Of a DNA stretch of 64,000 nucleotides, positions 708-59,597 are shown one piece after another. Origin of the DNA: Squalus acanthias (taxonomy: Eukaryota); NCBI GenBank assembly GCA_030390025.1, contig CM059432.1, positions 69,628,001 to 69,692,000 of the forward strand. The letters run 5' to 3'. The position numbers and the translations under genes were made by a program. Each line of letters starts with the position of its first letter. The first letter of the stretch is position 1. The notes under the pieces are model-generated. The model made no database searches. It worked only from the letters and a program-made list of their open reading frames with translations, and was not told the origin of the DNA.

Positions 708-3700
708 CGTGAGTCAGGGGACATTTGCCATACAGCGCTGACTCCAGGCAGGATCCTGGCTACTAAGATGGAGCATGCCTTTGCCATTCAGCAAAATCCC
801 AGTGGCACTGCAGTGGGACTGATACTGCAGCAGCAGAAGAGACAACTAGGCATTTAAACTGGCAGAATAGTCCTAAAGAGGAGAAGGCAACAATGTTTTT
901 TAGGTTTTGGCCTGAGACCAAGGCAAAATAGAGAGAGAGGAGGTCTTTACTAAACCCTTAACATCCAGCAGAAGATCTTGGGGTCATTCCTGCCACTTCC
1001 CTAAGCCTACCGCCATCTTCCACTAGGCAGTCCTGGGGGGGAAGCGATAAGAAGGGTGGGCGGGAGGGAAATAAGCCGCTGGGCCATGCTTCCCTGGTGG
1101 CATTTACATGAGGCAGACAAGGATGAAGTGGCCAGCAGTTGGCTAGCAAGTTATTAATTAATTAATTGAGATGGGAGACCAGGAAATGTGTTGTTGTTGT
1201 TGCATGTGGGAGCTGGTGGACACCATTGAGGTCCAAGGCGACCACATCTACAGCAAATGTTGGCTGCTTGAGGAACTTCGGCTCAGTGTTGATGAGCTGG
1301 AGTCCGAGCTTCAGACACTGACACACTAGGGAGGGGGAGCGTTACCTGGACGCTAAGTTCCAGGAGGCAGTCACACCCACTAGAGTAATTACTTCCAATT
1401 TGGCCCATGGTCAGGGAAAGGTGGGTGTGACTACAAGCGAGGCAGGTATTGGGATCCAGGAGGTAGTGATGGAGGAGCCTCAGCCCTTGGCCTTGTCAAA
1501 CAGGTACAAGATTCTTGCTCCCTGTGTGGACGAGGGCAAGGACTGCAGGGAGGATGAGCAATCTGACCACAGCACCGTGGTACAGGGAGCCATTCAAGTG
1601 GGGAGAGTAAAAAGAAATGTTGTAGTGATAGGGGACAGTATAGTTAGGGGGATAGATACTGTTCTCTGCAGCCGAGAGCATGAGTCCTGAAGGCTGTGTT
1701 AAGGGTAAAGGACATCTCTGGGCTGAAGAGGAACTTGGAGTGGGAGGGGGAGGATCCAGTTGTCATGGTCCATGTAGGCACCAATGACATAGGTTGGACA
1801 AAGAAAGAGGTTCTGCTGAGAGAGTATAAGCAGCTAGGGGCTAAATTAAAAAGCAGAACCACAAAGGTAATAATCTCTGGATTACTACCTGAGCCACGAG
1901 CGAATTTGCATAGGGTAAATAAGATCAGAGAAATGAACCAGTGGCTCAAAGACTGGTGTGGGAGAAATGGGTTTCGATTTGTGGGGCACTGGCACCATTA
2001 CTGGGATAAAAGGGAGCTGTTCCGTTTGGACAGGCTTCACTTGAACCATGCTGGGACTAGAGTCCTGGCGAATTGAATAACTAGGGCTGCAGAGAGGGCT
2101 TTAAACTAAATAGTGGGGGGGAGGATCCAGGTGAGCGGGCATTTAAAAAGTCAATCAGAAATGAGAAAACAATAGAGCAGGATAGAGATGGGGCAAATAA
2201 TAACCAGAGTGTGACGGGAAGGGACAGAATGTTTAAAAATAAGAATGCAACAGAAAATGTGGCCAAAACAAGGAGAAATGGTAAAAAGACAAAGTTAAAA
2301 GCTCTATATCTGAATGCACGCAGCATTCGTAACAAGATAGATGAGTTAACGGCACAAATAGATACAAATGGGCATGATCTGATCACCATTACAGAGACGT
2401 GGTTGCAAGATGATCAGGGCTGGGAATTGAATATTCCAGAGTATCTGACAATTTGGAAGGACAGACAGAAAGGAAAGGGCGGTGGGGTGGCTTTGTTGGT
2501 AAAGGATGGGATCAGTGCAGTGGTGAGAAGTGATATTGGATCAGAAGATCAAGATATAGAATCGGTTTGGGTGGAGATAAAAAATAATAAAGGGAAAAAG
2601 TCTCTGGTGGGTGTAGTCTACAGGCCCCCGAACAATAGCAATACTGTTGGACAGAGTATAAATCAACAAATAATGGAGGCCTGAAAAAAGGTACGGTAAT
2701 AATCATGGGTGATTTTAATCTCCGTATTGATTGGACAAATCAAATTGGCCATGGTAGTCTTGAGGAGGAGTTCATAGAGTGCATCCAGGATGGTTTCCTA
2801 GAACAGTATGTAATGGAACCAACCAGGGAGCAGGCTATCTTGGATCTGGTACTGTGTAATGAGACAGAATTAATAAATGATCTCATAGTAAAGGATCCTC
2901 TAGGAAAGAGTGATCATAGCATGGTTGGATTTCAAATTCAGTTGGAGGGTGAGAAAGTTGTATCTCAAACCAGTGTCCTGATCTTAAACAAAGGCAATTA
3001 CAATGGCATGAGGGCAGAACTGGCTAAAGTGGACTGGAAAAATAAATTAAAGGGTAAGACAGTTGAAATGCAGTGGCGGACATTTAAGGAGATATTTCAT
3101 AACTCTCAACAAAAATATATTCCAGTGAGAAAGAAAGATTTTAAGAGAAGGGAGCACCATCCGTGGCTAACTAAGGAAGTAAAGGATGGTATCAAATTGA
3201 AAACAAAGGCATACAATGTTGCCAAGATTGGTGGGAGACCAGAGGATTGGGAAAATTTTAAAAACCTGCAAAGGATGACTAAAAAAATAATAGAGAGAGA
3301 AGATGAATGATGAGAGAAAACTGGCAAGAAACATTAAAACAGATAGTAAGAGCTTCCACAGGTATATAAAAAGGAACAGGGTAGCTAAAGTGAACGTTGG
3401 TCCCTTAGAGGATGAGACTGGGGAATTAACAATGGAGAATGGGGAAATGGCAGAGACTCTTGACAAATATTTTGTATCTGTCTTCACGGTAGAAGACACT
3501 AACAACATCCCAAAAATGTATAATCAAAGGGCCACAGGGAGGGGGGAACTAAAGACAATCACTATCACTAGGGAAATAGTACTTGGTAATATAATGGGAC
3601 TAAAAGACGACAAGTCCCCTGGACCAGATGGCCTGCATCCCAGGGTCTTAAAAGAAGTGGCTGCAGAGATAGTGGATGCATTGGTTGCAATATACCAAAA

Positions 3701-8171: not shown

Positions 8172-8653
8172 TAAGTGTAAAGGGTAACAAATCCAAGTCT
8201 TGGCAGGAAAGCATAGGTAGGCCTCACTGGCCCATTTTCCAGCTATTTTTACCACGGGATAGCAGAGGAAAATCTAACCCATTCATTCAAACTAGTGTTG
8301 GATATTGTTCAGTAATAGAATAGATGTCTTTATTTTGTTTGATAACCAGTATAGCACTGCAGAAAGAAATTTGATAAAGTTCTGGGAAAATTGGTGTTCT
8401 CTGATAGAATCCCACAAGTTACTTCATTCTCATCCTAAAGTACCCACCATCTTTATAAATTATATAATTCCTATACATAAACCATCCCCAGAATATTAGA
8501 GATTAATAATAACTAGTAATCAAGCCTACTTATTAATGTATGATGAACTATAACTAAATTAGAAACATCAGAACCAATTTTGATGTCCATTTTGCCTAAT
8601 CTGTGCCTGTTTTTATTTCTGCCTGATTCCTGCCCATTTTATATCTTGCAAAA

Positions 8654-8748
8654 ACAACAGAAAACGCTGGAAAAACTCAGCAGGCCAGGCAGCATCCGTG
8701 GAGAGAGAAAGAGAGTTAACGTTTCAGGTCGATGACCTTTCATCAGAA
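8654..8748 (-). mobile_element. Short Penelope-like terminal fragment with hammerhead core (family ACGT)
   Basis: A 13-bp TSD atatcttgcaaaa flanks it (8641-8653, 8749-8761), and it is absent from duplicate copy 2. The minus strand reads CTGATGA-A-AGGTC-atc-GACCT-GAAA-CGTT-AACT. Confidence 0.8.
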
Positions 8749-9003
8749 ATATCTTGCAAAATTTTGCAATGAGTCTGAGACAGGTGGTAGAAGCAGTTGA
8801 ACTCAAATACCATGAGATGATGGCCTCCTCAATGCCAAGAGTCTTATTGTCATAGTTTGCAGCCAGTCACCTCACCTTTAGGTAGCATCTAGAAGGATCC
8901 ACTAGAGTACGACTCAGGACGTCATGCAGTGGCACTAAGGGGAAGCATAGTGACAGGAAACATAATGGGCTGTAATGACAGGAGGGGGGTTAAAATAAAC
9001 ATT

Positions 9004-9762
9004 GGCCCGTATTTTCCGATCGGAGGCTTCCTGCGTGTGGAGGCCTCCGATCTGGAAAAAATCTACGCCCTTACCTGAGGGCTCCGGAGGTCCGGACATT
9101 TCCGCTCCTGGGTCTCTCCACTACGAAATGCGCAGGGCCCAGGTATCCCAGGGGCGCATACAGTTCGCAAGCATCCCTGGGATTACGTGGGCCATGGGGA
9201 ACCAATGAAAGAAGGGAATCCCCCTTCATACTTTTGACCGGTCTCTCGGCTGAGACCCGTCAAAAGTATGAATGGGGATCACTCCAAAAACACATCAAAA
9301 CATTAAATAATTTTTTTTTTAAATCACGTTTTTAAAATTAGTTAAAATCACATTAAATATTTTGAACAAAAATTTAATTTTTTGGAAAAAAAATTTACGG
9401 GGCTAAAAATAAATTTACCTTTTTTAAAAGTATTTGTAAATTATAAATGAGTGGGAAAAAAAAATTTTTTTAAACTTTTTTTTAAACTCTTATGCTGGTA
9501 AAAGCAGGCCTTACGCCTGCTTTTACCAGGCGTCAGATTTTTAAAGGATTTCAGAGGGCGGAGGTTCCGCAAAAAGTGGAACTCTCCACCCGCAGAGGCC
9601 CTTCTCCAGGGCAGGCGTCCGATCTGTCAAGAGGATTCATGACAGATCGGAAGTGCCGGTTTTCAGCGCATGCTCTTCGCGTGCCTGAAATAGGCACTTG
9701 TGAGGTCCTTACGGGTGTGTACACAGCTTGTACACACCCGTAGGGATTGGAAATTACGGGCC
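9004..9762. mobile_element. Non-autonomous Harbinger-type MITE (GGCCCGTA termini)
   Basis: TIRs are ggcccgtattttcc / ggaaattacgggcc with a 3-bp TSD ATT. The empty site is visible in duplicate copy 2 (aaacattatgttg, about 17770). A second copy lies at 38204-38924. Confidence 0.9.
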
Positions 9763-9999
9763 ATTATGTTGCATATGAAGTTGCTGTGGTTGATATGAAT
9801 GTCCCTTTCTAGTGTTTGAACTCTTTTGGATGTAATAGCATGAGACTGAGCTGTCTGATTTGTGGAGTGAGCAACATAGTGTTCTGAAATGAAAACAGAA
9901 AATGCTGGAAACACTCAGCAGATCAGGCAGCATCTGTTCTGTTTGGACACAGCTGAAAGGAAGTCGGTATATGCTCGTAGCATATGGCTCAGCAATGGG

Positions 10000-10700
10000 A
10001 GAATGCTAGTTGCTGGCGAAGGCTTCCCTATTAATCTGGTTATGTACAGCTCTTGCAGCCTTCAAGAAAAGGCAGTTGGCCTCCCTTTCCTGCTGATGCT
10101 AGTCTGAGTGTGGCTCCTGTGGACCTGGTTCGCCTTCCTCCGATGCATTCCCTACAGCCAGGACTCTTTGTAGGGCAAAAAGTTGCAGTATCAGGGACAT
10201 GAACGGCCAAATGCCTGCCATCTATCACACCCTGCATCGTGGGAAGGCCAACCCATTAGTAGAACTGAATAGCTCTCTCATGCTGCTGCTAATGGGACAT
10301 ATCAGAATTTCTGAATTGGCTTGCCTTTGCAAATGAGGCATCAGTAACCTGTTGGTTGGATGGATGCATGCACTGTGGATTGGCTGATGTTCGTAATGTC
10401 CCATGTTTCAGTCCGAAATGATCCTGTGGCTAAGAAATTCAGGGTTGTGATGATGTTGACGATCACGCAGTGCGGTCTAAACATTGGCGGTGAGCTGGAA
10501 GTCTGGTTCCAGGAGGTGGCACAGCTGATCCAGGACTTCCCAGCTGAAGTGTAGCCTCCTCAAACAAAGCTCCTGGCTCATTTGCAGATAGGAGTACCAA
10601 GGTATTTGCACTTTGGTGGGTACTGATGGGAGGGTCTCATCCTCCTCCTATGTTGTCGAATTAGTCTGGCTTCCCTGCGTTCTCCCTTATCTTCTTCTGA
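10000..10700 (-). pseudogene. Degraded HARBI1-like Harbinger transposase remnant (duplicate copy 1, internally deleted)
   Basis: Minus-strand MQGVIDGRHLA motif. It is homologous to 18010-19090 but lacks about 390 bp of that copy. Confidence 0.75.
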
Positions 10701-10951
10701 GAAACAGGGAAATTCTCATAGGAAACCTGTGCTACCATGACAGTGGATTAGAGTCAAAAAATTTGAAGGCCTATAGCGCTTTCGGTAAAGGAGGAAGATG
10801 AAAGCATAAGTCAAAAGCAAAAAACTAAATAAATCAGTTGAAGGAAATACAAGGATTTATCAAGCAAATGTACTTTTGCTTGTTTGGTCCCTGTAAACAC
10901 TACTTTCTCCTTGACAAGCTGATCCTGGCAAGCAAACATGCCTGCTTTATA

Positions 10952-11388
10952 AAATTGAGAAGTCGCACAACACCAGGTTATAGTCCAACAGATTTATTTA
11001 ATTTTACAAGCTTTCGGAGCAGTTCGCTCCTTCGTCAGGTAAGTTAGCAGTGAGAGAATCTCCCAGAATTCACAATTTAAACACAGACAAAATCTATTCA
11101 CATCTGTCCCTACATCAAAGAGCACAGCCAAGACAATGAGATGTGTCCCAGGGGGTCCAACGTGTCAAACCACCTGCTGGCTGCATATCCTGTCAATTTG
11201 TGTAGGTTCTTGTGTTAGTCTTTTTAAAAAAAAAAACACCTGGGAAGACCGGCCATGATGTCAAGTCACGTTCTGTATCGTGACATGAACCCGATATCGC
11301 GATTGAGGCCATCCTCATGAGTGCGGAACTTGGCTATCAGTTTCTGCTCTATGATTTTGCGCTGTCGTGTATCTCGAAGGCCGCCTTG
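10952..11388 (-). mobile_element. 5'-truncated Penelope-like retroelement: GIY-YIG endonuclease C-terminus plus 3' terminal repeat with hammerhead
   Basis: The minus strand from 11388 translates QGGLRDTRQRKIIEQKLIAKFRTHEDGLNRDIGFMSRYRT*, the E..I..F.T....GLN pattern of PLE GIY-YIG ends. It is absent from duplicate copy 2. The terminal ~120 bp matches 45333-45455. Confidence 0.85.
11004..11042 (-). ncRNA. Minimal type I hammerhead ribozyme motif (PLE-type)
   Basis: Minus strand reads TTAC-CTGACGA-A-GGAGC-gaact-GCTCC-GAAA-GC-TT-GTAA. This gives the CUGANGA and GAAA core, stems I and II, and a palindromic AGCU in place of stem III. Confidence 0.75.
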
Positions 11389-12051
11389 TGGGATTGCAGC
11401 AGAAGGGCCAAAATTAAGCTAGGACGTGGCACATCTGCGTCCCGGCCTTCCTTGCCAGTTTCCACAGAGCCTCCTCCATTCTAAACATGGTTACCTGTGT
11501 GTGAGGGGTCATGGCCGTGGAAGGGACTTTTGTCCTTGAAATAATTCATACCAGGCTCCTGGTCACTGCAAATGTGACACACCTAGCGGTCTAGGCCTGT
11601 GTCCTGGCCTGGAAAAATTAAAGATTTAAAAAAATTCTTGTTTTTTCCAGCTCATTTAGGGAGCCAATGGGGCAGAATCTATGTAGAAGCCTGTGCCAGG
11701 ATTCTCACCACCCTTATCCCCTTTCACCAACTGGCAGGTGCCTGAGATGTACCGCAGTAGCACAGGTGCCTGGCATTGATATTTTAATGAAGGAACCTCT
11801 TCCTGACCCAAGAAAGTGCAGCGGGATCAGGAGCGAAGTTTCCTGATGGCCATTCGCAGCACTTACTGACCAAAGGCCCACAGGTTTTTGGGGCCTTGAT
11901 GTATAACCACACACATATGTCGACAAAAAGCTGATCATCAGGTTAATTAGCCTTCATACAGAATGAAAAGGACGTTTTAATTATTATTAGCTATATACAT
12001 GAATAATTGTTTCAAGTAACTAATTAACGTTGAATCTCATGTCTAATGCAG

Positions 12052-12141
12052 TGAAGAAGAAGAATCTTCAGAAAAGTATAAGCTTGCTGAGCCTTTCAGA
12101 ACACATTCAGGAAACACCAAAAATAAGGAAATCTGTCAGTA
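12052..12141 (+). CDS. Candidate 90-nt phase-1/phase-1 host-gene exon, copy 1 (xKKKNLQKSISLLSLSEHIQETPKIRKSVS)
   Basis: Acceptor ctaatgcag| and donor |gtaagt. The length is a multiple of 3, only the phase-1 frame is open in both duplicate copies, and that phase matches the exon at 42686. Confidence 0.55.
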
Positions 12142-13020
12142 GTAAGTATTACATAAAACCGAAAATGGTGGAAATGCTCAGTACACAGTAGATTTACACA
12201 GAGTAATACAAAATGAAAGTTCTCTTCACTATTGACGTGTAGAGTGAGAAATTCGAACCTCAGCCACACCGGGCGCAAACTTGTAAAAGCAACTGTTCTG
12301 TATGCTGGCCTTGAGGCCCGAGTCAAATTTGGCATTGGTCCTCCTTTTAATGGAACCAGTGAGCTTTGGGTGTCAAACGTTCGTTTTGATAAAAGTCTTG
12401 ATAAATTCGGTCTGACTCCAACACCAAGCCAGCACGCATGGTAGGTCCTGGGATCAGGGAAGGTGAAGCCAAGTGGGTGAGCCTGGGCCAGCTACGTCCC
12501 ATGGTTTTTGTTTTAGGATTGCTCCTTCTGGCTCCACAAAAATATGGGGGAGAAATTCTGTACCTTAGTACATCGAGTTAGCGTCTGGCGGGGGCGCTAA
12601 CGGGGCAGTACTGCCGCGACGAGGCGAATCCAGCGATGCATGCCAAATGCGCACCACTGTAGTGCCGGGGACTTCAGTGCCAGACAGACCATGACGTCAG
12701 TGAGCGTGCAACGCTCACTGGGCGCCTGATCAGCAAAATTGATTATCGCCCCTGCCTTAGCGCCTCGCCCCGACAGTGACAAGGAGAGGAGGCGTGAAGC
12801 AGTCGGTAGACAGCTTCAGGGGTGCTACTTAAAAGGATCATGAGTAATGAGTTGCAGCTCTCAGGTTAGTGCTGGTTCACTGCTTCCTTGTTAGTTTGAC
12901 ATTGTGCAACAGTTGAAATCAGTCATTTAAAGGTTGTTTAGTCTCCGGAGTGTTGTGGCTACTAAAAATTAATTACATTTATTATCACAACATATCAAAG
13001 TGTTACACATCGTTGCATTA

Positions 13021-14606
13021 ATGGGGGCTGTACTGGCAGTCGACCTCGCCCTCCAGGATCTAGAAACATAGAAACTAGGAGCAGGAGTAGGCCATTCGGC
13101 CCGTCGAGCCTGCTCCACCATTCAATACGATCATGGCTGATCAACCAAATCCAGTACCCTGTCCCTGCTTTAATCCCCACAGTACACATATCCCACCCTA
13201 CCCCCGTAACCCCACATATTTAATTCCCCCTAACATATCCCATCCTATCCCCATAACCCCACATATTTAATACCCCCCTAACACTAAGGGTCAATTTATC
13301 ATAGCCAAATCAACCTAACCCACACATTTTTGGATTGTGGGAGGAAACCGGAGCACCCGGAGGAAACCCACGCAGACACGGGGAGAATGTGCAAACTCCA
13401 CACAGACAGTCACCCGAGGTCAGATTCGAACCCGGGTCCCTGGCGCTGTGAGGCACCAGTGCTAACCACTATGCCACGGTGGAGGGAGCGGAGCAGCGAG
13501 AAAGACTGGAACATGTGGCCAGAGAGAGGAGGAGAGCCATCAGGGCTCTCAACAGGAGGCCTTACCCTCCGAGGGTATTCTGACAGCACTTCTCCTATGT
13601 TCAATTAAGCGAGCAGCAGTCTATTAGAAGGCTCTGCTTCACCAAGGAGGTGGTCACAGAACTCTGCCACCTCCTGCAACCAGACCTCTGGCCTCAGATC
13701 AGGACGACCACAGCTCTCTCAGTGGCAGTCAGGGTCACCGTCGCCCTCAATTTCTTTTCCAGCGGATCCTTTCAGTCTGCAACAGGTGATATAACTGACA
13801 TCTCACAGTTTGCCGTCCATCGTTGCATCTGGGAGGTCACAGAGGCTCTCTACAGTAGGAGAAGGGACTACATTTCCTTCCCCAGCACCAGAGAGAAGCA
13901 GGACGAGCGTGCATGTGGCTTTGCCAGGATAGCGGGATTCCCCATGGTGCAGGACGCCATTGACTGCACCCATGTGGCTTTGTGGGCACCGCCTAATAAT
14001 CCTGACATCTTCCGTAACCACAAAGGCTACCACTTACTTAGTGTGCAGTTGGTGTGCGACTACACACAGCGAATTCTCAATGTGAATGCCCGCTATCCTG
14101 GCAGAAGCCAGAATGCCTTCATCCTGTGCCAGACCGGTGTGCCAGCACTCTTTCAGCCACCACATCAAGCTTGCGGCTGGCTGGTCGGAGACAAGGGCTA
14201 TCTGCTCTCCACCTGGCTCGTGACTCCCCTCCGCAAATCCAACACTCCTGCCCAACACTCGCATAATGAGAGCCATGCAGCCACCAGGAATATCATTGAG
14301 CAGACCATCGGGGTACTCGAGCAACGGTTCCGCTGCCTTGACCGCTCGGGAGGAGCCCTCCAGTACTCGGCTGAGCGGGTGTCCCATTTTGTCGTCGTCT
14401 GCTGCACATGCCACAATTTGGCCATCATGAGGGCCCAGCCCTTGTCACCAGGGATTGCGGGACCACCTCAGCAGGAGGAAGAAGGAGAGGAGGAGGACGA
14501 GGAAGAAGAGGTAGACGAGGAGGATGAGGAACTGGAGCGAGGGAGGAGGCAGCCACTTAATCGCGGCCTTCCAGAAGGGCGGTCCATCAGACTGCAGTTC
14601 AAATGA
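13021..14606 (+). pseudogene. HARBI1-like DDE transposase, interrupted by a SINE
   Basis: ORF 13650..14606 has GFPMVQDAIDCTHV, GWLVGDKGY, HAATRNIIEQTIGVLEQRFRCL and an acidic tail. The 5' end is split by the SINE. Confidence 0.9.
13061..13476 (-). mobile_element. tRNA-derived V-SINE (HE1-like) with CR1-derived 3' tail
   Basis: The minus strand has an A box (tggcatagtggttag), a B box (ggttcgaatc) and the V-core tgtgtggagtttgcacattctccccgtgtctgcgtgggtttcctccggg. Its tail is shared with local CR1 3' ends. It is absent from family A copy 2. Confidence 0.85.
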
Positions 14607-14775
14607 ATGAAACCCCAGATCCCCATTGCTCACCACATCCCCATCATTCCATCACTGTCGCAGGCTATTTTGCAGCGCAAAGCTGAAATGAAACACACCA
14701 CAAAATAATCCAAACTGAATTAATAGATTTATCAATAATCAGTTAGCACATATTTACAACAACAATATTAACTAT

Positions 14776-16995
14776 TCACCCTTGTGCAATCCCTTCGTGC
14801 CTCTCGTTATAGTCTACTCTAGTGCTCCTACAAAGTGTTAGCCTTGTGGCTGCAGCACGGCTGGTGGAAGGCTGCTGAGTGTCCATGCAGGAGACTTGAG
14901 ATGGCCTTGCAGGACGCCCTCGACCAGCTCTGGGCCTGGAAGGCCTGGCTGTAGACTGCACCACCTCAGCATGGGCGGCTTCAGTCTGGGCTGGCTGGAT
15001 GACAGGCAGCGACAAGGGCAATGGCAGAGTGCCAGCGGTGGGAGCAGGAATGCTGTCATCCTGAGAGAGGACAGCAGGTTCCTGCTCCACTGACCCTTCC
15101 CTGGGGCAGCACCTCAGCATCCCTAGCAATCTGTTGCAGCACAGACTGCTGGCCTGCTGCGACACCGTGAAAGCCCCGGTTGACGGTGGTAGACCCAGCC
15201 ACGATGGCAGCAGCCAGAGCTTGCGTGGCATCAAGCTGAGACTGCATGAGAGCGGTCTGAGATTGAATGCCGCCAAGCATAGACTGCATTACAGCACTAA
15301 GACGTTCCGTCTCTTCTGCCTGTGCTGCAATGGAAGCTGCCAGATCACCAATCACACGCGGCACCAGGTCTGGGTCGCTACGGTCTCTCTGGGAGTTGAC
15401 CATCCTTTCCAGACTGGAAATGATGGGCTCCATGGAGTGCACAGAGCTTTGTGCAATGTTGGAGGGGGACTCCTCCACTCTCCTTACCATTGCCGACAGG
15501 CTCTCAGAACACCTTTCCATTGCACCTATCATCTCCGTGTGCATGCCCATCACCCTTCTTCTAAAGGCCTCCCCATCGAGATCCTCATCTGAGTCCTGTG
15601 CAGCACAACTCGCTCTCCGAGGAGCTGGCCCCCGAGCTATCCTTTCCCCTCGCCTTGCTGCAGCCAGCTCGTCCCCGGTGCATCACCCTGTGCAGATCCC
15701 GCTACTCTACTAGCCTCTATCTGAGCTGGTGCCTGCGGGTGAGACATGCAGTGACGTGGTGTCTTCTTCCTCCTCCTCTTCTCCCGCCTCGCTCTCAATG
15801 GTGCCCTCAGGGACAGGCTGCTCAGCTGTTTGCTCATTATCTGAAAGCATAAAGGCACAAGAGTCGGGTTAAGGTGAGGGGAGGGGGGCAGGAAGGGAGA
15901 AAGGCATGCGTACAGCATGATTAGCGGGAAAGTGCGAAAGGCTTGTGGGGTGAGGGGAAGTGGGATGTGAGAAGAAGGAGTAGGGATGAACATACCGTTG
16001 TTGTCCCCAAGGGGGTCAACGTCGCCAGTAGCCATGGTGCCCACCACCTGGCACCCAATAATCTCCGGCACTCTATTTTCCAGTGTAGACAGTGGTTGAG
16101 TGTCTGCTTGTCCCCCACCTGTGTGCTCCTGCTCCCTCCTGTTGTGAGCCACCTTGGCCTGCAAGAGAAAGGAAAGTGTGTGAGTGAGTGTGGAGCAATG
16201 TGCTTGGGTGTTGTGCCTGCCATAGTTGAATAGCTGTCATTGTGTGCAAGGTGTGAGATGTGGATGTGAGTGTTGGTAGGTAGAGATTGTTAGTGGGTGA
16301 GTGCCAGGAGTGTGGTGCTTTGGCCAGTGTGTGCAGACTGTGGTTCAAATGGTGGTACATGAAACTATCTTTTAACCGGCACCCAAATAACCGGAAATCT
16401 CTCTTAACCGGCAAAATTCTTGAGTAGGTAACCGGGGTTTTCCTTCATCTCACCTTTAAAAATAACTTTTTAAAAAACCGAGGCGTTTGCCTTGTATTGG
16501 AGCATGTAGATTGGGAGGGGAATGTGTAGCCCGGGTAGGCAGCGGACACGACAGATGGTCAGCTGGCGGTCCCCGGGGAGTCGGAGCTCCGAATGCAGGC
16601 GCATGTCAGTGTGTACGGGGCTCTCGTACGTTGGGAGATATAACTCTCCATTATCCGGCCTTTTTGATTAACAGGCACCACGCCGGTCCCGTCGGTGCCG
16701 GTTAATAAAGAATTTCCTGTATGTAGCATTTGCTGAGGCATTGACTCACCCTGACCACCCGAGTGAGGTCATTAAATTTCTTCCTGCACTGTGTGTGGGT
16801 CCTTGGGACCACAGTGCTGCCTAAGACATGCTGGGCAACCTCCCTCCACATGGCATGGAAGACTTGCGGCAAGGGCCTCCTGCCACTTGCTGGGTAGAGC
16901 ACTGCCCTCCATCTCTCCACAGCGGACACCATCTCCTCCAATGCTTGGTCCGAAAAACTGCGGGCTCCCTCCCTGGGGCGTGGATCTGCCATCAT
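14776..16995 (-). pseudogene. Harbinger Myb/SANT-like DNA-binding gene, 3 exons (16995-16750, 16158-15996, 15840-~14776), frameshifted in exon 3
   Basis: RSFSDQALE..WREVA..RTHTQCRKKFNDL is a Myb/SANT-like trihelix motif. Minus-strand junctions gtgag, tgcag, gtatg and ttcag are present. Confidence 0.85.
16358..16719. mobile_element. Tc1/mariner-pogo-type MITE in intron 1 of the Myb gene
   Basis: TA TSD and imperfect ~26-bp TIRs catgaaactatcttttaaccggcacc / ggtgccggttaataaagaatttcctg. The empty site ggtggtatgtagc is at about 46790 in copy 2. Confidence 0.8.
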
Positions 16996-18009
16996 GACAC
17001 CTGCTTGAGTCGTCCGGCTCCTTGGGCTTGGCCTGCTCCTGCTTGCTGACACAGGTTCACAGCCTGCAATGCTGAGAATGAAGTTCTGCAGCATCAATGA
17101 ACCTCCCCTTTAAGAACTGGAAAGAGCCTGTGGCAATGATGACTTACGATTAGACTGCACCTGATATTGGTTAGTGCTTTCAGTGCAGCGCCACTGAGCT
17201 AGGCCATTAGCGCTTGATTTAGCGCTCCAATCCTTTCTTTGAGCGATGATACTTAATTTTGCGTGCAGCATTATTCATTTGCGCCTGGTGCTAAATCTCA
17301 AACTTTTCTGAAATTACCGCCCGTTCCTGGGCTGTAATGAATTTCTCCCCCTATAAATATAAGGTTTTGTGGCCATTTCTTGAGCGGCTTCTAGCAGCCC
17401 CTTTATGGATCTCTGGTTAGGCCGCACAAACCTGGTTCAGCTATGCAGAGTTCCTCCATTTTGCCTAATCTTTGCCTGTTTATATTTCTGCCTGATTCCT
17501 GCCCATTTTACACCGTGAAAAATTTTGCAGTGAGTCTGAGACAACTGGTAGAAGCAGGTGGACTCAAATACCATGAGATGATGGCCTCCTCCGTGCCAAG
17601 GGTCTCATTGTCATAGTTTTCAGCCAGTCACCTTTCATGACCCTGACCTTTAGGTAACATCTAGAAGGATCCACTAGAGTAGGACTCAGGACGTCATGCA
17701 GTGGCACTAAGGGGAAGCATAGTGACAGGCAACAGAAGGGACTGTAATGACAAGATGGGGTGAAAATAAACATTATGTTGCATATGAAGTTGGTGTGGTT
17801 GATATGAATGTCCCTTTCTAGTTTTTGAACTCTTTCGAATGTAATAGCATGAGACTGAGCTGTCTGATCTGTGGAGTGAGCAACATAGTGTTCTGAAATA
17901 AAAACAGAAAATGCTGGAAACACTCAGCAGATCAGGCAGCATCTGTTCTGTTTGGACACAGCTGAAAGGAAGTCAGTATATGTTCAGAGCACTCTTTCGG
18001 CAATGGGAG

Positions 18010-19090
18010 AATGCTAGTTGCTGGCGAAGGCTTCCTTATTAATCTGGTTATGTACAGCTCTTGCAGCCTTCAAGACAAGGCATTTGGCCTCCTTTTCCTG
18101 CTGATGCTGGTCTGAGTGTGGCTCCTGTGGACCTGGTTCGCCTTCCTCCAATGCATTCCCTGCAACCAGATCTCTTTGTAAGACAAAAAGTTGCAGTATG
18201 CAACACATAAGCAATATTCAGGTGATCCTAGCTGTAATGTATTGCACAGACCCATCAAAACCATCCAGGTAGTTTAATCTACCTTTGAGCATTCCGATAG
18301 AGTGCTCAATGATGACTCTGGTGGCAGCATGGGCACCATTGTAGCATTGCTCTGCAGGTTTTGGGGAATTCGCAGAGGTGTCATCAGCAATGAGATCAGT
18401 AGGTATCCTTTCTCCCCAAGTAGCCGCCAACACCCTTGTCTGTCTGGATGAAACAGTGCTGGCATGGTAGACTGCCTTAAGACAAAAGTATTGTGGTAGC
18501 TGACAGCATAGTAAGCATTGAAATGCAGGGTCCTATATGATAGAATGGTATCTTTTTCCATTGATGTAATGAGTTGGATTAATATAGGGGACACGAATGG
18601 CCAAATGCCTGCCATCACACCCTGTATCGTGGGAAAGCCAACCCCTTAGTAGAACTGAATAGCTCTCTCATGCTGCTGCCAATGGGACATTCCAGAATTT
18701 CTGAATTGGCTTGCCTTTGCAAATGAGGCATCAGTAACCTGTTGGTTGGATTTGTGCGTGCACTGTGGATTGGCTGATGTTTGTAATGTCCTATGTTTCA
18801 GCCTGGAATGATCCTGTGGCTAAGAAATTCAGGGTTGTGATGACTTTGACGATCACGCAGTGTGGTCTAAACATTGGAGGTAAGCTGGAAGTCTGGTTCC
18901 AGGAGGTGGCACAGCTGATCCAGAACTTCCCAGCTGAAGTGCAGCCTTCTCAAACAAAGCTCCTGGCTCATTTGTAGATAGGAGTACCAAGGTATTTACA
19001 CTTTGGTGGGTACTGATGGGAGGGTCTCATCCTCCTCCTATGTTGTCGAATTAGTCTGCCTTCCCTGCATTCTTCCTTATCTTCGCCCTC
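18010..19090 (-). pseudogene. Degraded HARBI1-like transposase remnant (duplicate copy 2)
   Basis: ORF 18218..18433 reads YNGAHAATRVIIEHSIGMLKGR and the region has many frameshifts. Confidence 0.8.
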
Positions 19091-19159
19091 CAAATAATTG
19101 AGAAACAGGGAAATTCTCATAGGAAACCTGTGCTACCTTGACAGTGGATTAGAGTCAAA

Positions 19160-20025
19160 GGGCTGGATTTTACCAGCCCTGAGGAGGTGGGTTTGGAGGC
19201 GGGACTGCTGGGAAAATCCCAAAAAATTGGAGCGGGTCCCAAACCCGCTCCCAACCCGCCTTCAACCAATCTTCTCGGGATTCGGGTCCCCGATTTGCGC
19301 AGGGACCCGACTCCTAGCAGCGGGAAGAGGATTATAGCCACTATATGCCTGTTAACAGGTAGTTAACAGGCAGTTAAGAGGCTTTTTCCCATTTTACGAC
19401 TTCTGCTGCGGGCTTCCTGACGCCGGGGAACCCCGACAGGGTAAGTGAGGGGTGCTATGGGTCTGTTGTTATGTTGGTGTTTGGATGACAGCTGCAGAGG
19501 TGGTGTGAAGGATGCATTGGGACACTGGTTACTTTCAGAGGTAAGGAAATATTGTGAAAGTAATTTTTAATGTGGTTAGATGTTTCTGCAGGTGACAAGC
19601 TTTGAAGTGTTTGTGTAGCCTCATCTCATCGGGAGAAGTGACAGATGGCTTCTGCAATCTCAGCTGCAGCTGCCATCTGTTTTATCCTAAGGAGAGAGTA
19701 ATTGGAGAGTCTGGGTACAAGGGCTCACCTTTGGACAGTGATTGTCAGTGTTTGACAGCACCTCAATGCTGTCAAACACTGACAATTCATCTGTCAAACA
19801 AGTGTGGTGCATATGCCTTTAAGAAAAGCGGCAGATGAAGCGTCATCAACTGATGTCATCCGACTCTGGCTTTCCCTTAATTGGCCGGCAAGGCTGCAGG
19901 GCGGGCTTAACAAGGCCAATCAGGGCAAAATAGCGTCTGTTCGTCAGACGTTGCTGGGGGCGGGACTGGAACCCAAAAACCAGCAGTCCCGCCTCGAACT
20001 CGGCCTGGAAGGTAAGATTCCGCCC
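19160..20025. mobile_element. Non-autonomous Harbinger-type element (GGGCTGGATTTT family)
   Basis: Termini gggctggattttacc / ggtaagattccgccc with TSD AAA. The empty site is in copy 1 (gagtcaaaaaatttg, about 10755). Confidence 0.85.
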
Positions 20026-20964
20026 AAAAGATTTGAAGGCCCATAACACTTTCGGTAAAGGAGGAAGATGAAAGCATAAGTCAAAAGCAAAAAACTAAAT
20101 AAATCAGTTGAAGGAAATACAAGGATTTATCAAGCAAATGTACTTTTGCTTGTTTGGTCCCTGTAAACACTACTTTCTCCTTGACAAGCTGATCCTGGCA
20201 AGCAAACATGCCTGCTTTATAAAAGCACAAGTAGCATTGAATGCAAATTAAGTGGTAACGATGAGAATATGGACTTTCTCTGTTCATTAATATCTATAAT
20301 CTAATGTTAATAAGAACTGGGAGCTGCAAATCTGAGGCCCTTCTGGTGGGATTGCAGCAGAAGGGCCAAAATTAAGCTAGGACGTGGCACATCTGCGTCC
20401 CGGCCTTCCTTGCCAGTTTCCACAGAGCCTCCTCCATTCTAAACATGGTTACCTGTGTGTGAGGGGTCATGGCCGTGGAAGGGACTTTTGTCCTTGAAAT
20501 AAGTCATACCAGGTCTGTGTCCTGGCCTGGAAAAATTAAAGATTAAAATTTTTTTTTTTCCAGCTCATTTAGGGAGCCAATGGGGCAGAATCTATGTAGA
20601 AGCCTGTGCCAGGATTCTCGCCACCCTTATCCCCTCTCACCAACTGGCAGGTGCCTGAGATGTACCGCAGTAGCACAGGTGTCTGGCATTGATATTTTAA
20701 TGAGGGAACCTCTTCCTGACCCAAGAAAGTGCAGCGGGATCAGGAGCGGAGTTTCCTGATGGCCATTCACAGCACTTACTGACCAAAGGCCCACAGGTTT
20801 TTGGGGCCTTGATGTATAACCACACACATACGTAGACAAAAAGCTGATCATCAGGTTAATTAGCCTTCATACAGAATGAAAAGGACATTTTAATCATTAT
20901 TAGCTATATACATTAATAATTGTTTCAAGTAACTAATTAACATTGAATCTCATGTCTAATGCAG

Positions 20965-21054
20965 TGAAAAAGAAAAATCTTCAGAACAGTAGAAGTTTGC
21001 TGAACGTTTCAGAACACATTCAGGAAACACCAAAAAAAAATAAACCTGTCAGTA
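20965..21054 (+). CDS. Candidate 90-nt phase-1/phase-1 host-gene exon, copy 2 (xKKKNLQNSRSLLNVSEHIQETPKKNKPVS)
   Basis: Same acceptor and donor as 12052-12141 with no indel. The phase-0 and phase-2 frames contain stops. Confidence 0.55.
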
Positions 21055-21673
21055 GTAAGTATTACATAAAACCGAAAATGGTGGAAGTGCTCAATACACA
21101 GTACAAAATGTAAATTCTCTTCACTATTGACATATTGAGGGGGGAATTTTTTACTGCAAAGGGCGAGTGGGTTTGGGAGCGTGTGGGTGGTTAAAAGTGC
21201 TGAAATTGACAGCGTCGGGAATTTGGCTCAAACCCGCCAATTTGCGCATTTAACTGGAGCGCGTTCGGCTGCGTGTGAGTAACCGCCTCGGGAGAGGAGG
21301 ATTGCCAATTTAAATATATTAAGAGGTAATTAACAACTTTTTAAACAGGTGTTTTAAACGTTAACTGTGGCTGCACTGGTTTCCCAGACTTCATGGTCCT
21401 CGCCATTGAAAGCAAGGCGAGAGCACAGCGGCAATTGAGGGGGCTGAACAAATGACAGGCAGAAAATCCCATGAGTACTGAGACCTCACACCTGCTTCAT
21501 TGCCTAAGTGAAAGGCTTTTGCTCACAGCACTTGTTCTGAGAGTTTGCTTTCAGTACTTTGCCGATGATTTCTGCTACCTTGAATGTGGTTTCTACTACC
21601 TTGGAGGTGAATCCCACTACTTTGGAAGTTTGTGCATCTGATCTCCACTTTCCACCTGTTATATATCAGATCA

Positions 21674-21903
21674 TGATGCGGAGATGCCGGTGTTGGACTG
21701 GGGTGGACAAAATTGAGAGGTCGCACAACACCAGGTTATAGTCCAACAGTTTTATTTGAAATCACAAGCTTTCGGAGCTATCGATTGCCCCTTCCTCAGG
21801 TGAAGTAGGAACTTCACCTGAGGAAGGGGCAATCGATAGCTCCGAAAGCTTGTGATTTCAAATAAAACTGTTGGACTATAACCTGGTGTTGTGCGACCTC
21901 TCA
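21674..21903. mobile_element. Penelope-like inverted terminal repeat insertion forming a ~95-bp-arm perfect hairpin
   Basis: Arms 21712-21806 and 21811-21905 surround an AGGA loop. A 13-bp TSD atatatcagatca flanks the insertion. The arms are homologous to the PLE terminus at 10952-11045. Confidence 0.85.
21814..21855 (+). ncRNA. Minimal hammerhead ribozyme motif (mirrored on the minus strand in the other arm)
   Basis: TCAC-CTGAGGA-A-GGGGC-aatcgata-GCTCC-GAAA-GC-TT-GTGA. Confidence 0.75.
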
Positions 21904-23443
21904 ATATATCAGATCAGCATGGGTGCCCAGCAGCAACAACACCAGCAGGAGCAGGAGCAACAGCAGCCTTCTCCACACAGACCTGCCGCTCCACCGGAGA
22001 GAGGGGATGAGCACAAGAGGTGCAGCTCGCAAGAGGAAATACCCACAACACGGTATATAGGCAGACGATCAGCTTCCTGGACATGACTGAACACCAGTGC
22101 CTCAGGAGGCTCAGGTTATCGTGTCAAGTTGTAGCAGACATTTACAGCCTGCTGGAACAAGACCTGCTGCCAAGTGGACCTGGTGGCCACACTTTACCAG
22201 TGGCAGTCAAAGTGACCACCACCCTCAACGTTTTCGCTTCGGGCTCCTTCCAGGATTAGCAGGAGACATTTTCAGGATTTCGCAGTTGGCTGCCCACAAA
22301 TGCATCACACAGGTGACTGATGCCATGTTTGTCAGGGCAGTTAATTATGTACACTTTGCCACCGATGAAGCCAGTCAGAATGAGCGGGCGCTCAGGTTTG
22401 CGGCTCTGGTAGGCTCCCCACAACTGCAGGGCATCATTGACTGCACACATGTGGCAATCAAGGCACCCTCCAGATCAACCAGTTGTGAAATGTAACGGCT
22501 TCCACTCCATCAATGTGCAGCTCGTCTGCAACCACAAAAAGATCATTATGCAGGTCTGTGCAAGATTCTGAGAGAGCTGCCATGATGCATTTGTCGTGCG
22601 CCAGTCCACCCTCCCTGAGCTCTTCGCACCTCCAAACAGACTTACCGGCTGGTTGCTTGGAGACAAGTGCTATCCGCTTAAAACGTGGCTGATGACACCC
22701 ATGAGGAGCCCAAGCAAGGAGGCCCAAGAGTGCTACAATCAAAGCCATATGACGACGAGATGCGTCATTGAGCAAGCAATCGGGATGCTGAAGATGCAGA
22801 ATGTCCGTTCACTTGCGAACAAGGCCCTTGCCACCCATGAGCTTATTGAAACCTGGCTGAGGGGTGATGACACCTTCTCCCTAAATGAAGCCTCCCCACC
22901 TGACTATACCTTCCACCACTTGCCCCGCCCAGACCATCACGGTGGCGGTGCGGCTCTTATCGCCAAATCACATCTTGGTCTGTCCCCCTACTGCTCTGGT
23001 ACTTGCCCCTCCTTTGAGCATCTCACCTTGTTCCACCCCTCTCACCTCTCATTTAAAATCCATGTTCTCTACCGCCTACCCAAGTACCATAAAGATTTTC
23101 TCACCGAGGTATCTTCATTGTTTTCCTCCCTTAGTCTCTGCACCAAGCGACTTCTCATCCTCGGTAACTTCAGCCTCCATCTCAATTCATCATGCGCTCT
23201 CTCACAATAATCATGGGGGACTTTAATCTTCATATCGACTGGGCAAATCAAATTGGCAAAGATAGTCTGGAAGACGAATTCATGGAATGCATTCAAGACA
23301 ATTTCTGAGAACAATACGTCATGGAACCAAACAGAAAACAGGCTATTTTAGATCTAGTATTGTGTAATGATACAGGGTTAATTAGTAATCTCATAGTAAA
23401 GGATCCTCTGGGGAAGAGTGATCACAATATGTTAGAAATTCAC

Positions 23444-42170: not shown

Positions 42171-42224
42171 TTGCTTCAGCATCCTATACCTCCTGGACAA
42201 ATAGAAATACAATTCACGGCTCAG
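42171..42224 (+). CDS. Possible 54-nt phase-1/phase-1 linker exon (xASASYTSWTNRNTIHGS)
   Basis: Flanked by gacag| and |gtttgt, open, and phase-compatible with its neighbours. Splice signals are weak and there is no homology support. Confidence 0.25.
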
Positions 42225-42685: not shown

Positions 42686-42867
42686 GGGTCTCTAAAATGA
42701 ATGATACTTCTGAGAAGTGGAAAGTGGTGACAAGGACAGGTGAGGCAGGCACAAAAGCCAAAGTTTCCATGTGGGCTTATGGTGACCAAGGTATGACAGG
42801 ACCAATGAGTCTTCAGAAAAGCAACAATACAAATGCCTTTCTTTCCAATCAAAGTGATGAATTTCAG
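42686..42867 (+). CDS. RP1: Host gene exon, PLAT domain N-terminal part (RP1-like long form)
   Basis: atag|..|gtaacc. Encodes GVSKMNDTSEKWKVVTRTGEAGTKAKVSMWAYGDQGMTGPMSLQKSNNTNAFLSNQSDEFQ, with the PLAT W/Y.V...TG..GT.A.V....YG..G pattern. The symbol is from recalled similarity, not a search. Confidence 0.8.
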
Positions 42868-43080: not shown

Positions 43081-43167
43081 ATCAATATGAAAAATGTTGG
43101 TCAGATCTATAAGATTCGCATTGCACACGATGACTCAAGCAAACAACCACACTGGAAGTTGGAAAAG
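43081..43167 (+). CDS. RP1: Host gene exon, PLAT domain middle
   Basis: ctttag|..|gtactt, 87 nt, phase 0/0. Encodes INMKNVGQIYKIRIAHDDSSKQPHWKLEK (G.I.KIRI.HD....W.L PLAT motif). It is not in the ORF track. Confidence 0.85.
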
Positions 43168-46200: not shown

Positions 46201-47444
46201 ACTTCTTCCTCCTCCTCTCCTCCCGCCTCGCTCTCAACGGTACCCTCAGGGACAGGCTGCTTAGGGGCTTGCTCATTATCTGAAAGCATAAAGGCACAAG
46301 ATTCGGGTTAAGGTGAGGGGAGGGGGCAGGAAGGGAGAAATGCATGCATGCAACATGATAAGCTGGAAAGTGCAAAACGCTTGTGGGGCGAGGGGGAAAT
46401 GGGATGTGAGAAGAAGGAGTAGGGATGAACATACCGTTGTTGTCCCCAAAGGGGTCAACGTCGCCAATGGCCATGGTGCCCACCACCTGGCGTCCAATAA
46501 TCTGCAGCACTTGAGTCTCCAGCTCAGAAAGTGGTTGGGTGTTAGCTTGTCCCCCGCTTGTGCGCTCCTGCTCCCTCCTGTTGTGAGCCACCTTGGCATG
46601 CAAGGGAAAGGAAAGTGTGTGAGTGAGTGTGGAGCAATGTGTTTGGGTGATGTATCTGCCATTGTTGAATAGCTGTCATTGTGTGCAAGGTGTGAGATGT
46701 GGTTGTGAGTGTTGGTAAGTAGGATTGTTGGTGGCTGAGTGTTGGAGGTGTGGTGCTTTGGGCAGTGTGTGTAGATTGTGGTTCAGATGGTGGTATGTAG
46801 CATTTGTTGAAGCATTTACTCACCCTGACCACCCGAGTGAGGTCATTAAATTTCTTCCTGCACTGTGCGTGGGTCCTGGGGACCACAATGCTGTCCAAGA
46901 TGTGCTGGGCTACCTCGCTTCACATGGTGCGGAAGACTTGCGGCGAGGACCTCCTGCCACTTGCCGAGTAGAGCACCACCCTTCGTCTTTCCACTGCGAA
47001 CACCAATACCTCCAGTGCATGGTCGCAGAATCTGCGGGCTCTCACCCTGGGGCGTGGATCTGCCATCATTACGGCTGCTTGAGTTGTCCAGCTCCTTGTC
47101 CTTGACCTGCTGCTGCTGGCTGAGATGGCTGCACAGCCAGCAATGATAAGAATGAGGTTCTGCAGCATCAATGAGGTTCTGCAGCATCAGTGAACTTCCC
47201 CTTTAAGAACTGGAAAGAGCCTGTGGCAATGATAACTTGTGATTAGACTGCACCTGATATTGGGCAGCACTTCGAGTTTAACACTACTGAGCTGGACCAT
47301 TAGCGCTTGATTTAGCGCTCCAATCCTTTCTTCCTGCAATGAGACTTAATGTTGCATGCAGTCTGAAGCATTAGCGCCTGGCGCTAATTCTCAAACTTTT
47401 CAAAAGTTAGCGCCCATTCCTGGGCTATAATGAATTTCTCCCCC
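43282..47444. mobile_element. Full-length Harbinger family A copy 2
   Basis: TIRs gggggaaaaattc / gaatttctccccc with TSD AAA. The transposase is at about 43709-44874 (+, one frameshift and a stop). A three-exon Myb-like gene is at about 47070-45040 (-). Confidence 0.93.
45333..45455 (+). mobile_element. Solo PLE terminal repeat (123 bp) with hammerhead motif at 45364-45402
   Basis: 10-bp TSD atcctgagag; absent from family A copy 1. The core reads TTAC-CTGACGA-A-GGAGC-gaact-GCTTC-GAAA-GC-TT-GTAA. Confidence 0.85.
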
Positions 47445-50960: not shown

Positions 50961-51377
50961 TCGGTCAATCTGGCCGGCTGCTGGGTGGGAAATGGAGTAA
51001 AGAATGATAATGAGATCCTACCATTAAATACAACAAGACCTCCACGTTCCCGGCATTTCCAGGTTTTACCCCCGCAAACACGGATTCCCGTTCCCTCCCC
51101 GCTCCCTGTAAATATCGGGATCTGCATTTCTACCTGGAAGGATATGTTGGGGTAGAAATACCACTTCTGTAGTCATCAGCCCACAACTTTCCCTCCATTT
51201 ATGTGAATTGATAAAAAAAAATCACAGCTGGTAAACACAGAAATGGAATTTCTACCCCATTGTTTAATAGTCCACAGCTCTCCATTGGTAGAATGTTGGA
51301 AAAGCGATTTTATATTATTAAATACAGGACTAATTTTGTATGCAAATAATTCTGCAAAATGTAAACTTTTCTTGCAG

Positions 51378-51516
51378 GTATTGATGAAACAAGAAAATAG
51401 TGGACAGATTTTGAAATTTAATGCAGGAAGGTGGTTATCAAGACAGCACGACGATGGAGAAATTGTGCGAGAAATTCCTCTTGCAAGAGAACATGATGGG
51501 AAGCCAGTCTATCCAG
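51378..51516 (+). CDS. RP1: Host gene exon, PLAT domain C-terminal part
   Basis: ttttcttgcag|..|gtatgg, phase 0/1. Encodes VLMKQENSGQILKFNAGRWLSRQHDDGEIVREIPLAREHDGKPVYP (F...RWL....DG.I.RE PLAT motif). Confidence 0.85.
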
Positions 51517-51865
51517 GTATGGAAATTCCAATCTAAAAAGGGCAAGCTGCTAAACAGCCATCAGTGGTACCCGAGCCAGGGTAATTAATGAAAATACCAG
51601 TTGTTTGAGAATTACAACAAATTGCACACAACAGACGAGATTTCAAGCTCCTAACCATAACAGATTTTAATTCCCACTGCATGGGATCACAGACAAATGT
51701 GCAATTATTATATGCCTTATTATTATATGCATATTATGCATATTATATATATATTATTATATGTATTTATTACATGCCTGTAACTAGCCAGCTACTGAAT
51801 AGTATCAAACCTTAATCGGCCTCCTCTCTTTGTATCATCATTATTCTTTTCAGTGGTACCATGAA

Positions 51866-58700: not shown

Positions 58701-59445
58701 GTCAGGATCTAAGAAAAAGTAACCTTTAAATTCTGCTGGATTCCCCTGTTACCATAGTATCGCCCTACACTCTGGGAAATACACAGGAACGGTGTCTAAA
58801 ATATTTAAGTTAGATGACCTCACTGAATTCAGCAAGGTCTGCATGACATTCTGCAAGCATAAGGACGCAAGTAAGCGCTGTAATTACAGCTGCTTTTACC
58901 CTACAGCCGGGGAAATTAGCCATTCAGTGATGTCCAGTTTTACAAAAGGAAGGTACAGCCTTTTATTCCTCAGGTGAAATTTTCAGCTGGTCTTGCACAA
59001 ATTCGTAGTGAACCTATGAGTTCTTTGAAACTCAGGTTTCTTTTAGTCAGAGCTTTACTACCTTAATCTCAGCACAGAGGATGAGTGAACTATATTCATT
59101 GACAAAAACTTTCCTAATCTTCTTTGACAGAAAATTACATCTGAACTTCATTTGCCTCAGGAAATCTCAATACTAAAGTTTTTTTTTCACCCCCTCATGC
59201 TTGAAATAGGGAAATTTCTAATTCAGTAGGAAGTAGAGGGATTGGTTCCAGTTGGGAAAAATTCTTTCCCAGAGCTTGATGAAAGGTGCACTAGTCAGAT
59301 TGAATAGCCTTTGCTATTTTATGTTTTAGGTACAAAATTTTACTTAATTAGTTTATGCTTTCTGATCTGCCATTCATTAAGTTCAGTTTCTATTAATACT
59401 ACAATAATTGTAATTGGCTTTACATTCTTGTGGTGCATTTGACAG

Positions 59446-59597
59446 TGGTGAAATACCAAGTACGTATCCACACTGGGCATTTGGAAGAAGCTGATTCTTA
59501 TCTTCCCATCTACATCTGTATCTATGGGGATAGAGGAGACACTGGACTGCGTTATCTATACAAATTTGACAAATCTGCCCAGTTAAAAGAGAGACAG
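59446..59597 (+). CDS. RP1: Host gene exon, start of next PLAT domain
   Basis: ttgacag|..|gtaagc, phase 1/0, in frame with the previous exon. Encodes VVKYQVRIHTGHLEEADSYLPIYICIYGDRGDTGLRYLYKFDKSAQLKERQ. It is not in the ORF track. Confidence 0.85.

Follow-up and report, generated by a model that had tools for sequence, protein, structure and literature searches.

A tandemly duplicated linker exon in the RP1 long-isoform locus of Squalus acanthias, next to an intron tract probably homogenised by gene conversion

The window analysed here is a stretch of 64,000 nucleotides of Squalus acanthias (assembly GCA_030390025.1, contig CM059432.1, positions 69,628,001 to 69,692,000, forward strand; window coordinates are used throughout). 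It contains two copies of a 90-nt segment, which an earlier note had described as a candidate exon of an RP1-like gene undergoing accelerated diversification. This segment is a genuine exon of the RP1 long isoform, as it matches the single linker exon of the sawshark and bamboo-shark models of that isoform and has phase 1/1. Its history is probably that of an ordinary tandem exon duplication, in which the contrast with the neighbouring sequence comes from a converted upstream intron while the exon, close to the edge of the duplicated block, keeps a near-neutral original divergence.

Results

Two copies of one linker exon in an RP1 locus

Copy 1 (12052..12141, + strand, phase 1/1, 30 codons) and copy 2 (20965..21054, + strand, phase 1/1) differ at 11 of 90 sites without any indel, as previously counted. 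Three changes are synonymous and eight are non-synonymous, the latter spread over 7 codons. A single frame is open in both copies and the splice sites are kept, again as first described, the 22 nt before the acceptor and the 32 nt after the donor being identical. The exon upstream of the linker, about 4 kb before the window, ends in phase 1 (...AAC A/GTGAGT) and provides the A of the first ATG of the linker, as in both shark models; on the other side, one base is carried over ahead of the PLAT exon at 42686, which agrees with the phase match noted earlier. Genome-wide, there are two matches to the exon DNA and two to the exon peptide.

A protein search with the PLAT exon retrieved a 1803-aa sawshark protein. 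Its residues 808-837 are 73% identical to copy 1 (23/30 residues) and 63% to copy 2 (20/30), with the exon at 42688 following directly. In the sawshark and bamboo-shark models, the linker sits between the FGF-like region and the third PLAT domain. These shark long-form models carry the name LOXHD1-like (XP_043544289.1 and UniRef100_UPI00398E6D89). Over 414 kb of the species' own genome around the window, the sawshark exons map in order: DCX exons 145 and 124 kb upstream, two PLAT, FGF-like, both linkers and further PLAT, with the DCX match at 145 kb on the same strand as the linker exons. The domain order after DCX is PLAT-PLAT-FGF-like-PLAT, and the order DCX, DCX, PLAT, PLAT, FGF-like is common to this locus and the human RP1 long isoform (NM_001375654.1 / NP_001362583.1). 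An open frame of 2019 codons, for which an atlas search gave no match, follows the DCX exons, 121-115 kb upstream; we take it to resemble RP1 exon 4, the large alternative terminal exon. In the RP1 long isoform, the PLAT exons lie past a large exon-4-type open reading frame that the long form skips, and likewise in the shark locus. RP1 adjoins SOX17, and a match to the Sox17/18 family, which also takes in SOX7 and SOX18, is found 256 kb upstream of the DCX exon. The collinear exon chain, the DCX/PLAT/FGF-like order and the Sox17-family neighbour together support the original assignment to a linker before a PLAT domain in an RP1-like gene. The excerpted text of PMC13657128 gives DCX, PLAT and FGF segments of human RP1 in the same order.

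The linker after the FGF-like region is double in S. acanthias and single in the sawshark model and in 12/12 bamboo-shark isoforms; these are gene models, the sawshark one holding transposon-derived stretches, so that a single copy in the relatives is unproven at the DNA level. No protein with two linkers, and none encoded by this genome, turned up in the protein searches, whose results were limited to two shark models plus one from a skate and one from a chimaera; the last two, divergent or intron-like at the linker, were left out of the copy-number comparison. A tandem exon duplication, as first suggested, is supported: the exons are paralogous and adjacent, match twice in the genome and are single in the models of the relatives.

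Extent of the duplicated block

The duplication is wider than the earlier note saw, pairing 8586-12253 with 17455-21148 over 2293 aligned columns (about 2.3 kb). Block copy 1 (8586..12253, + strand), delimited by self-BLAST and global alignment, has its own inserts at 8641-8748, 8989-9761, 10955-11380 (repeats) and 11553-11592. Block copy 2 (17455..21148, + strand) has inserts at 18197-18582 and 19156-20024, 114 nt at 20225-20338 that are absent from copy 1, and an 18-nt deletion 47 nt past the exon. In the spacer (12254..17454), 292 nt that match nothing else in the 414 kb are followed by about 4.9 kb derived from repeats. The 3' end of the block homology is 112-201 nt away from the exon.

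The outlier is the intron tract

Divergence between the copies is 7.7-8.5% at the 5' end of the block, 5.6-6.3% over 9762-10754, 1.7-2.8% over 10755-11930, 12.2% in the exon and 7.8-11.4% after it, the ranges reflecting varied trimming near gaps. A change-point fit yields three segments with 78/1230 (6.3%), 16/760 (2.1%) and 20/173 (11.6%) differences; this model has the best Bayesian information criterion (BIC) of the five compared, and its Akaike information criterion is better by 25 than that of a single-rate model. The middle segment is a low-divergence tract (10787..12047, + strand; 16 of 760 columns differ) that pairs with about 20057-20960 and was likely converted. For stretches of 300, 500 and 800 columns, the observed minimum is below that of 2999-3000 of the 3000 permutations.

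The exon itself is less exceptional. The three- to fourfold excess reported before holds against the adjacent 350 nt, where the hand count of 12 differences is exact (12/350; ratio 3.56, Fisher p 0.002), but it depends on the comparator. It falls to 2.4-fold against all non-exon aligned columns (112/2203), to 1.45-fold against 8586-9003 (26/309, p 0.19) and to 1.15-fold against 12142-12253 (10/94, p 0.46). The columns just before the exon differ at 4/121 positions and those after it at 2/47, then 8/47; the exon is not significantly above both flanks (11/90 vs 14/184, p 0.15) or above the 47 nt that follow it (p 0.11). A sliding-window check, based on a global realignment of the block copies, speaks against the distinctness of the exon as well, since at least 11 differences (maximum 12) occur in 22-55 of the 1790-2025 overlapping 90-column windows outside the exon, and a window of this kind arises by chance in 32-79% of permutations (61% in another permutation set). 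The outlier in the profile is thus the quiet intron tract rather than the exon. A slippage hot spot, also considered as a cause, is minor at most: four of the 11 differences lie at most 9 nt from an A-run, a degree of clustering that chance often produces (P 0.31).

The tract is low between paralogues, not between species

Sequence from a related shark, organism A, comes from four runs (X1-X4) of one study, representing at most two samples; the runs behave as genomic DNA, covering the intron throughout, and the comparison spans the copy-1 stretch 8500-12400. Two contigs lie over the exon in 4/4 runs. The first runs on into the copy-1-specific flank, to 12393, while the second leaves at 12190, the site of the 18-nt deletion of copy 2, and is without 1+2 letters in the exon A-run, a net in-frame loss of 3 nt. 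Two parallel contigs are also found over 10326-10647. Judging from these contigs, organism A apparently carries both copies. Among the 40 of 351 difference rows listed, 4 of 23 sites examined separate both contigs of organism A from the two copies in the window.

Cross-species counts use nine pieces among the 32 listed: three inside the tract, three outside and two exon pieces treated apart, piece 10141-10349 being left out as it overlaps its neighbours (15/207 vs 17/205). Inside the tract, copy 1 differs from copy 2 at 15/676 positions (2.2%) and from organism A at 49/697 (7.0%; p 2e-5). Outside it, the corresponding counts are 57/812 and 78/809, and the ratio contrast between inside and outside has p 0.011. 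The exon pieces reverse the order, with 25/265 (9.4%) between paralogues and 25/422 (5.9%) to the likely orthologue. Over 11660-11774, one contig carries all the depth in X1 and X4, as if the copies of organism A were identical there. Paralogues 2.2% apart in a tract where a relative is 7.0% apart argue for gene conversion. The homogenised intron, which the earlier note had offered as an alternative, is therefore the better explanation, the tract being low between paralogues and not between species.

The linker is weakly constrained

Non-synonymous differences per site (pN) amount to 8/73.25 (0.109) and synonymous ones (pS) to 3/16.75 (0.179). The ratio of 0.61, from 11 changes, is indistinguishable from 1. 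With this ratio, with block edges about as diverged as the exon and with a tract that is low between paralogues only, accelerated diversification is not borne out as the main reading. When sawshark and bamboo shark are compared over 17 exon-sized segments, conservation is lowest in the linker (43% vs 50-88% for the others), and its length is 41-42 residues in the two sharks and 60-69 in three bird proteins. Since the linker is so poorly conserved and variable in length, many replacements are expected without adaptation.

Discussion

Proposed history of the duplication

Alongside what is directly observed, that is, the duplication, the homology and phase of the exons, the three-level divergence profile and a pN/pS below 1, we propose the following sequence of events. 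The duplication would predate the split from organism A. Conversion after that split would have brought some 0.8 kb of aligned intron back to about 2% divergence, working less efficiently on the final 200 nt of homology, in which the exon is situated. Efficient conversion usually needs at least about 200 nt of homology in yeast, according to the accessible part of PMC3924818, and the portion of PMC2588116 available to us reports that paralogues under conversion diverge more at block edges. Transcripts would include either copy or both, the latter lengthening the linker from 41 to about 71 residues. No frameshift is predicted, because the exon is phase-symmetric and has the same splice sites in both copies; the earlier phrase "in tandem or alternatively" is thus frame-compatible, inclusion or skipping being neutral at phase 1/1. 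A doubled linker would be tolerated since the linker is weakly constrained, and at about 71 residues it would approach the length seen in birds. A literature search without supplements, and mostly without subscription journals, found no paper on this duplication.

Several observations weigh against this account. The BIC of the three-segment model is just 1.9 below that of the single-rate model. The upper change point, 12048, coincides with the start of the exon (at 10-column resolution) and few columns differ just after the donor (2/47), which gives the exon the look of a local peak; its divergence is also 1.8-2.1 times that of columns outside both exon and tract (p 0.02-0.05, in a one-sided comparison chosen post hoc). 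Cross-species divergence dips in the tract too (7.0% vs 9.6%, p 0.08), and the cross-species counts come from listed pieces in which contig orthology is inferred and the exon letters are unseen. Read depth is weak and mixed evidence for a collapse of the copies of organism A in the tract, the implied depth lying between the single and summed levels in X1, X2 and X4 and at the single-copy level in X3. Among the 40 of 351 difference rows listed, both contigs of organism A agree with copy 2 at 18 of 29 diagnostic sites over 10192-10647, and the upstream history was consequently not a simple old split; faster change in S. acanthias copy 1 or conversion in organism A would produce this pattern.

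Alternative explanations

One of the copies, more likely copy 2, may be a neutrally drifting pseudoexon, silent or seldom used, which leaves one linker in the mRNA. This is a tenable though less than even prospect, compatible with conversion of the intron and different in usage only. Copy 2 is farther from the sawshark linker (20 vs 23/30) and has four clearly derived replacements vs at most 1-2 in copy 1, but the rate asymmetry is not significant (p 0.38-0.45), both copies match the bamboo-shark linker equally (15/30 each) and their splice-site neighbourhoods are identical. The probability that AG, GT and the open frame survive in a neutral copy is 0.64-0.81, times about 0.87 for no indel (about 0.55-0.7); because such a copy would often stay intact, intactness is weak evidence of use. 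The in-frame 3-nt loss in the copy-2-like contig of organism A would be a mild hint that this copy is used.

Alternatively, conversion could have acted across the whole block, with selection removing the events that overwrote the exon because the linker versions differ in role, giving a peak like that at exon 5 of the primate opsins. Such a signature is known, as described in the parts of PMC3924837 and PMC2588116 at hand, and it would suit the change point at the exon start, the few differences on either side (4/121 just before, 2/47 just after), the intact frames and splice sites and the in-frame loss in organism A. We nevertheless hold it to be unlikely. The exon is not significantly above its flanks, as given above, and there is no excess of replacements (8/11 vs 81% expected). 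At 8-10% unconverted divergence, the height of the peak needs no selection (P 0.10-0.29); the edge position accounts for it equally well, and constraint on the protein is weakest in the linker. It is correspondingly doubtful that two linker versions are kept apart by selection against conversion in at least two sharks and spliced alternatively or in tandem, tuning the spacing or charge between the FGF-like region and PLAT.

The earlier proposal of positive selection, in which the exon evolves faster than neutral and the upstream intron gives the true age, is now improbable. It draws on the 3.56-fold contrast with the adjacent 350 nt and on seven replacements in 30 codons, but pN/pS is 0.61, synonymous sites (3/16.75) are as diverged as replacement sites, and the block edges reach 8-11% without coding. 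Moreover, 2-3% cannot be the true age if organism A, 6-11% away, has both copies. We give as little credence to a conserved regulatory or splicing element held by purifying selection in both copies without conversion. The lower cross-species divergence in the tract (7.0% vs 9.6%) is in its favour, as is the finding that most of the tract does not belong to a high-copy repeat (two full matches, four short weak ones); yet constraint should lower both values alike, whereas the paralogue value falls 3.2-fold and the cross-species value 1.4-fold. Finally, two haplotypes assembled in tandem are hardly credible even with parts 98% alike, given a mean divergence of 5-6%, repeat inserts and flanks that differ between the copies, and two matching contigs in organism A.

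Other features of the locus

The next conserved exon, encoding the first part of a PLAT domain, lies at 42686..42867 (+ strand; tblastn, 84% to sawshark aa 839-899) and is followed by a PLAT exon at 43081..43167 (+ strand; 97% to aa 899-928). Further PLAT exons that match the sawshark protein are found at 51375..51520 and 59445..59597 (both + strand, approximate limits). The long-isoform chain goes on past the point where the shark protein models stop, with more PLAT exons at about 127-215 kb from the window start, and there is an additional PLAT match at C8:69911476. A candidate exon at 42171-42224, proposed previously, was rejected as it has no counterpart in the 19 proteins compared (no match better than E 1.0). 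PLAT matches also occur in equal-score pairs 20 Mb apart on C2 (5769127/25953632 and 5775267/25959792), which would stem from either a recent segmental duplication or a false one; two Sox matches with identical scores on C9 (66455685 and 66620938) form a similar pattern.

The insert at 10955-11380 of block copy 1 is a young repeat (98% to another copy) at the place where copy 2 has its 114 unique nt (20225-20338). It splits the low-divergence tract, with 2% divergence on either side. A perfect palindrome at 21712-21905 (95-nt arms, 4-nt loop), 658 nt after copy 2, is a member of a repeat family with 14 arm matches in the 414 kb and a second near-palindromic pair about 101 kb upstream. Both exon copies lie between inverted repeats at 10954-11020 and 21839-21905 (67 nt, 91%), whose pairing in the pre-mRNA could loop the two exons out. 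A long repeat, presumably of Harbinger type, is present in two copies 82-87% alike (13476-17351 and 43750-47444), parts of which match the transposon-derived stretches of the sawshark model.

Comparison with known systems and significance

As in other tandem exon duplications, two paralogous, phase-symmetric exons are found here in one gene. Such duplications affect 7-17% of metazoan genes, many cases being nearly neutral, according to the excerpt of PMC3342872. They usually show mutually exclusive splicing, whereas here nothing forces exclusion (the copies are 8.8 kb apart and frame-neutral), and the duplicated unit is a variable linker instead of a domain. Interlocus gene conversion is known from the Drosophila Bob and Amy blocks and the introns of the primate red/green opsins; there, as here, paralogue divergence is low inside and higher at the edges, and paralogues are closer than orthologues in introns (PMC2588116 and PMC3924837, in the text consulted). 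Unlike in these systems, conversion here would have taken place within one gene. The opsin exon peak, furthermore, is tied to known functional residues and has long converted introns on both sides, whereas here divergence is low upstream and 2/47, then 8/47, downstream.

The locus supplies an intact RP1 long-isoform exon chain in a shark; the accessible text of PMC11919084 states that the function of the RP1 isoform without exon 4 is not known. If the exon were a selected peak, it would indicate a functionally tuned linker in this isoform and a rare case of within-gene selection resisting conversion, an intragenic counterpart of the opsin exon-5 peak. As most likely explained, the finding matters little in itself, as a further case of tandem exon duplication accompanied by a conversion tract. 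It does provide a clean warning that the ratio of exon to adjacent-intron divergence in a tandem duplicate can mimic positive selection.

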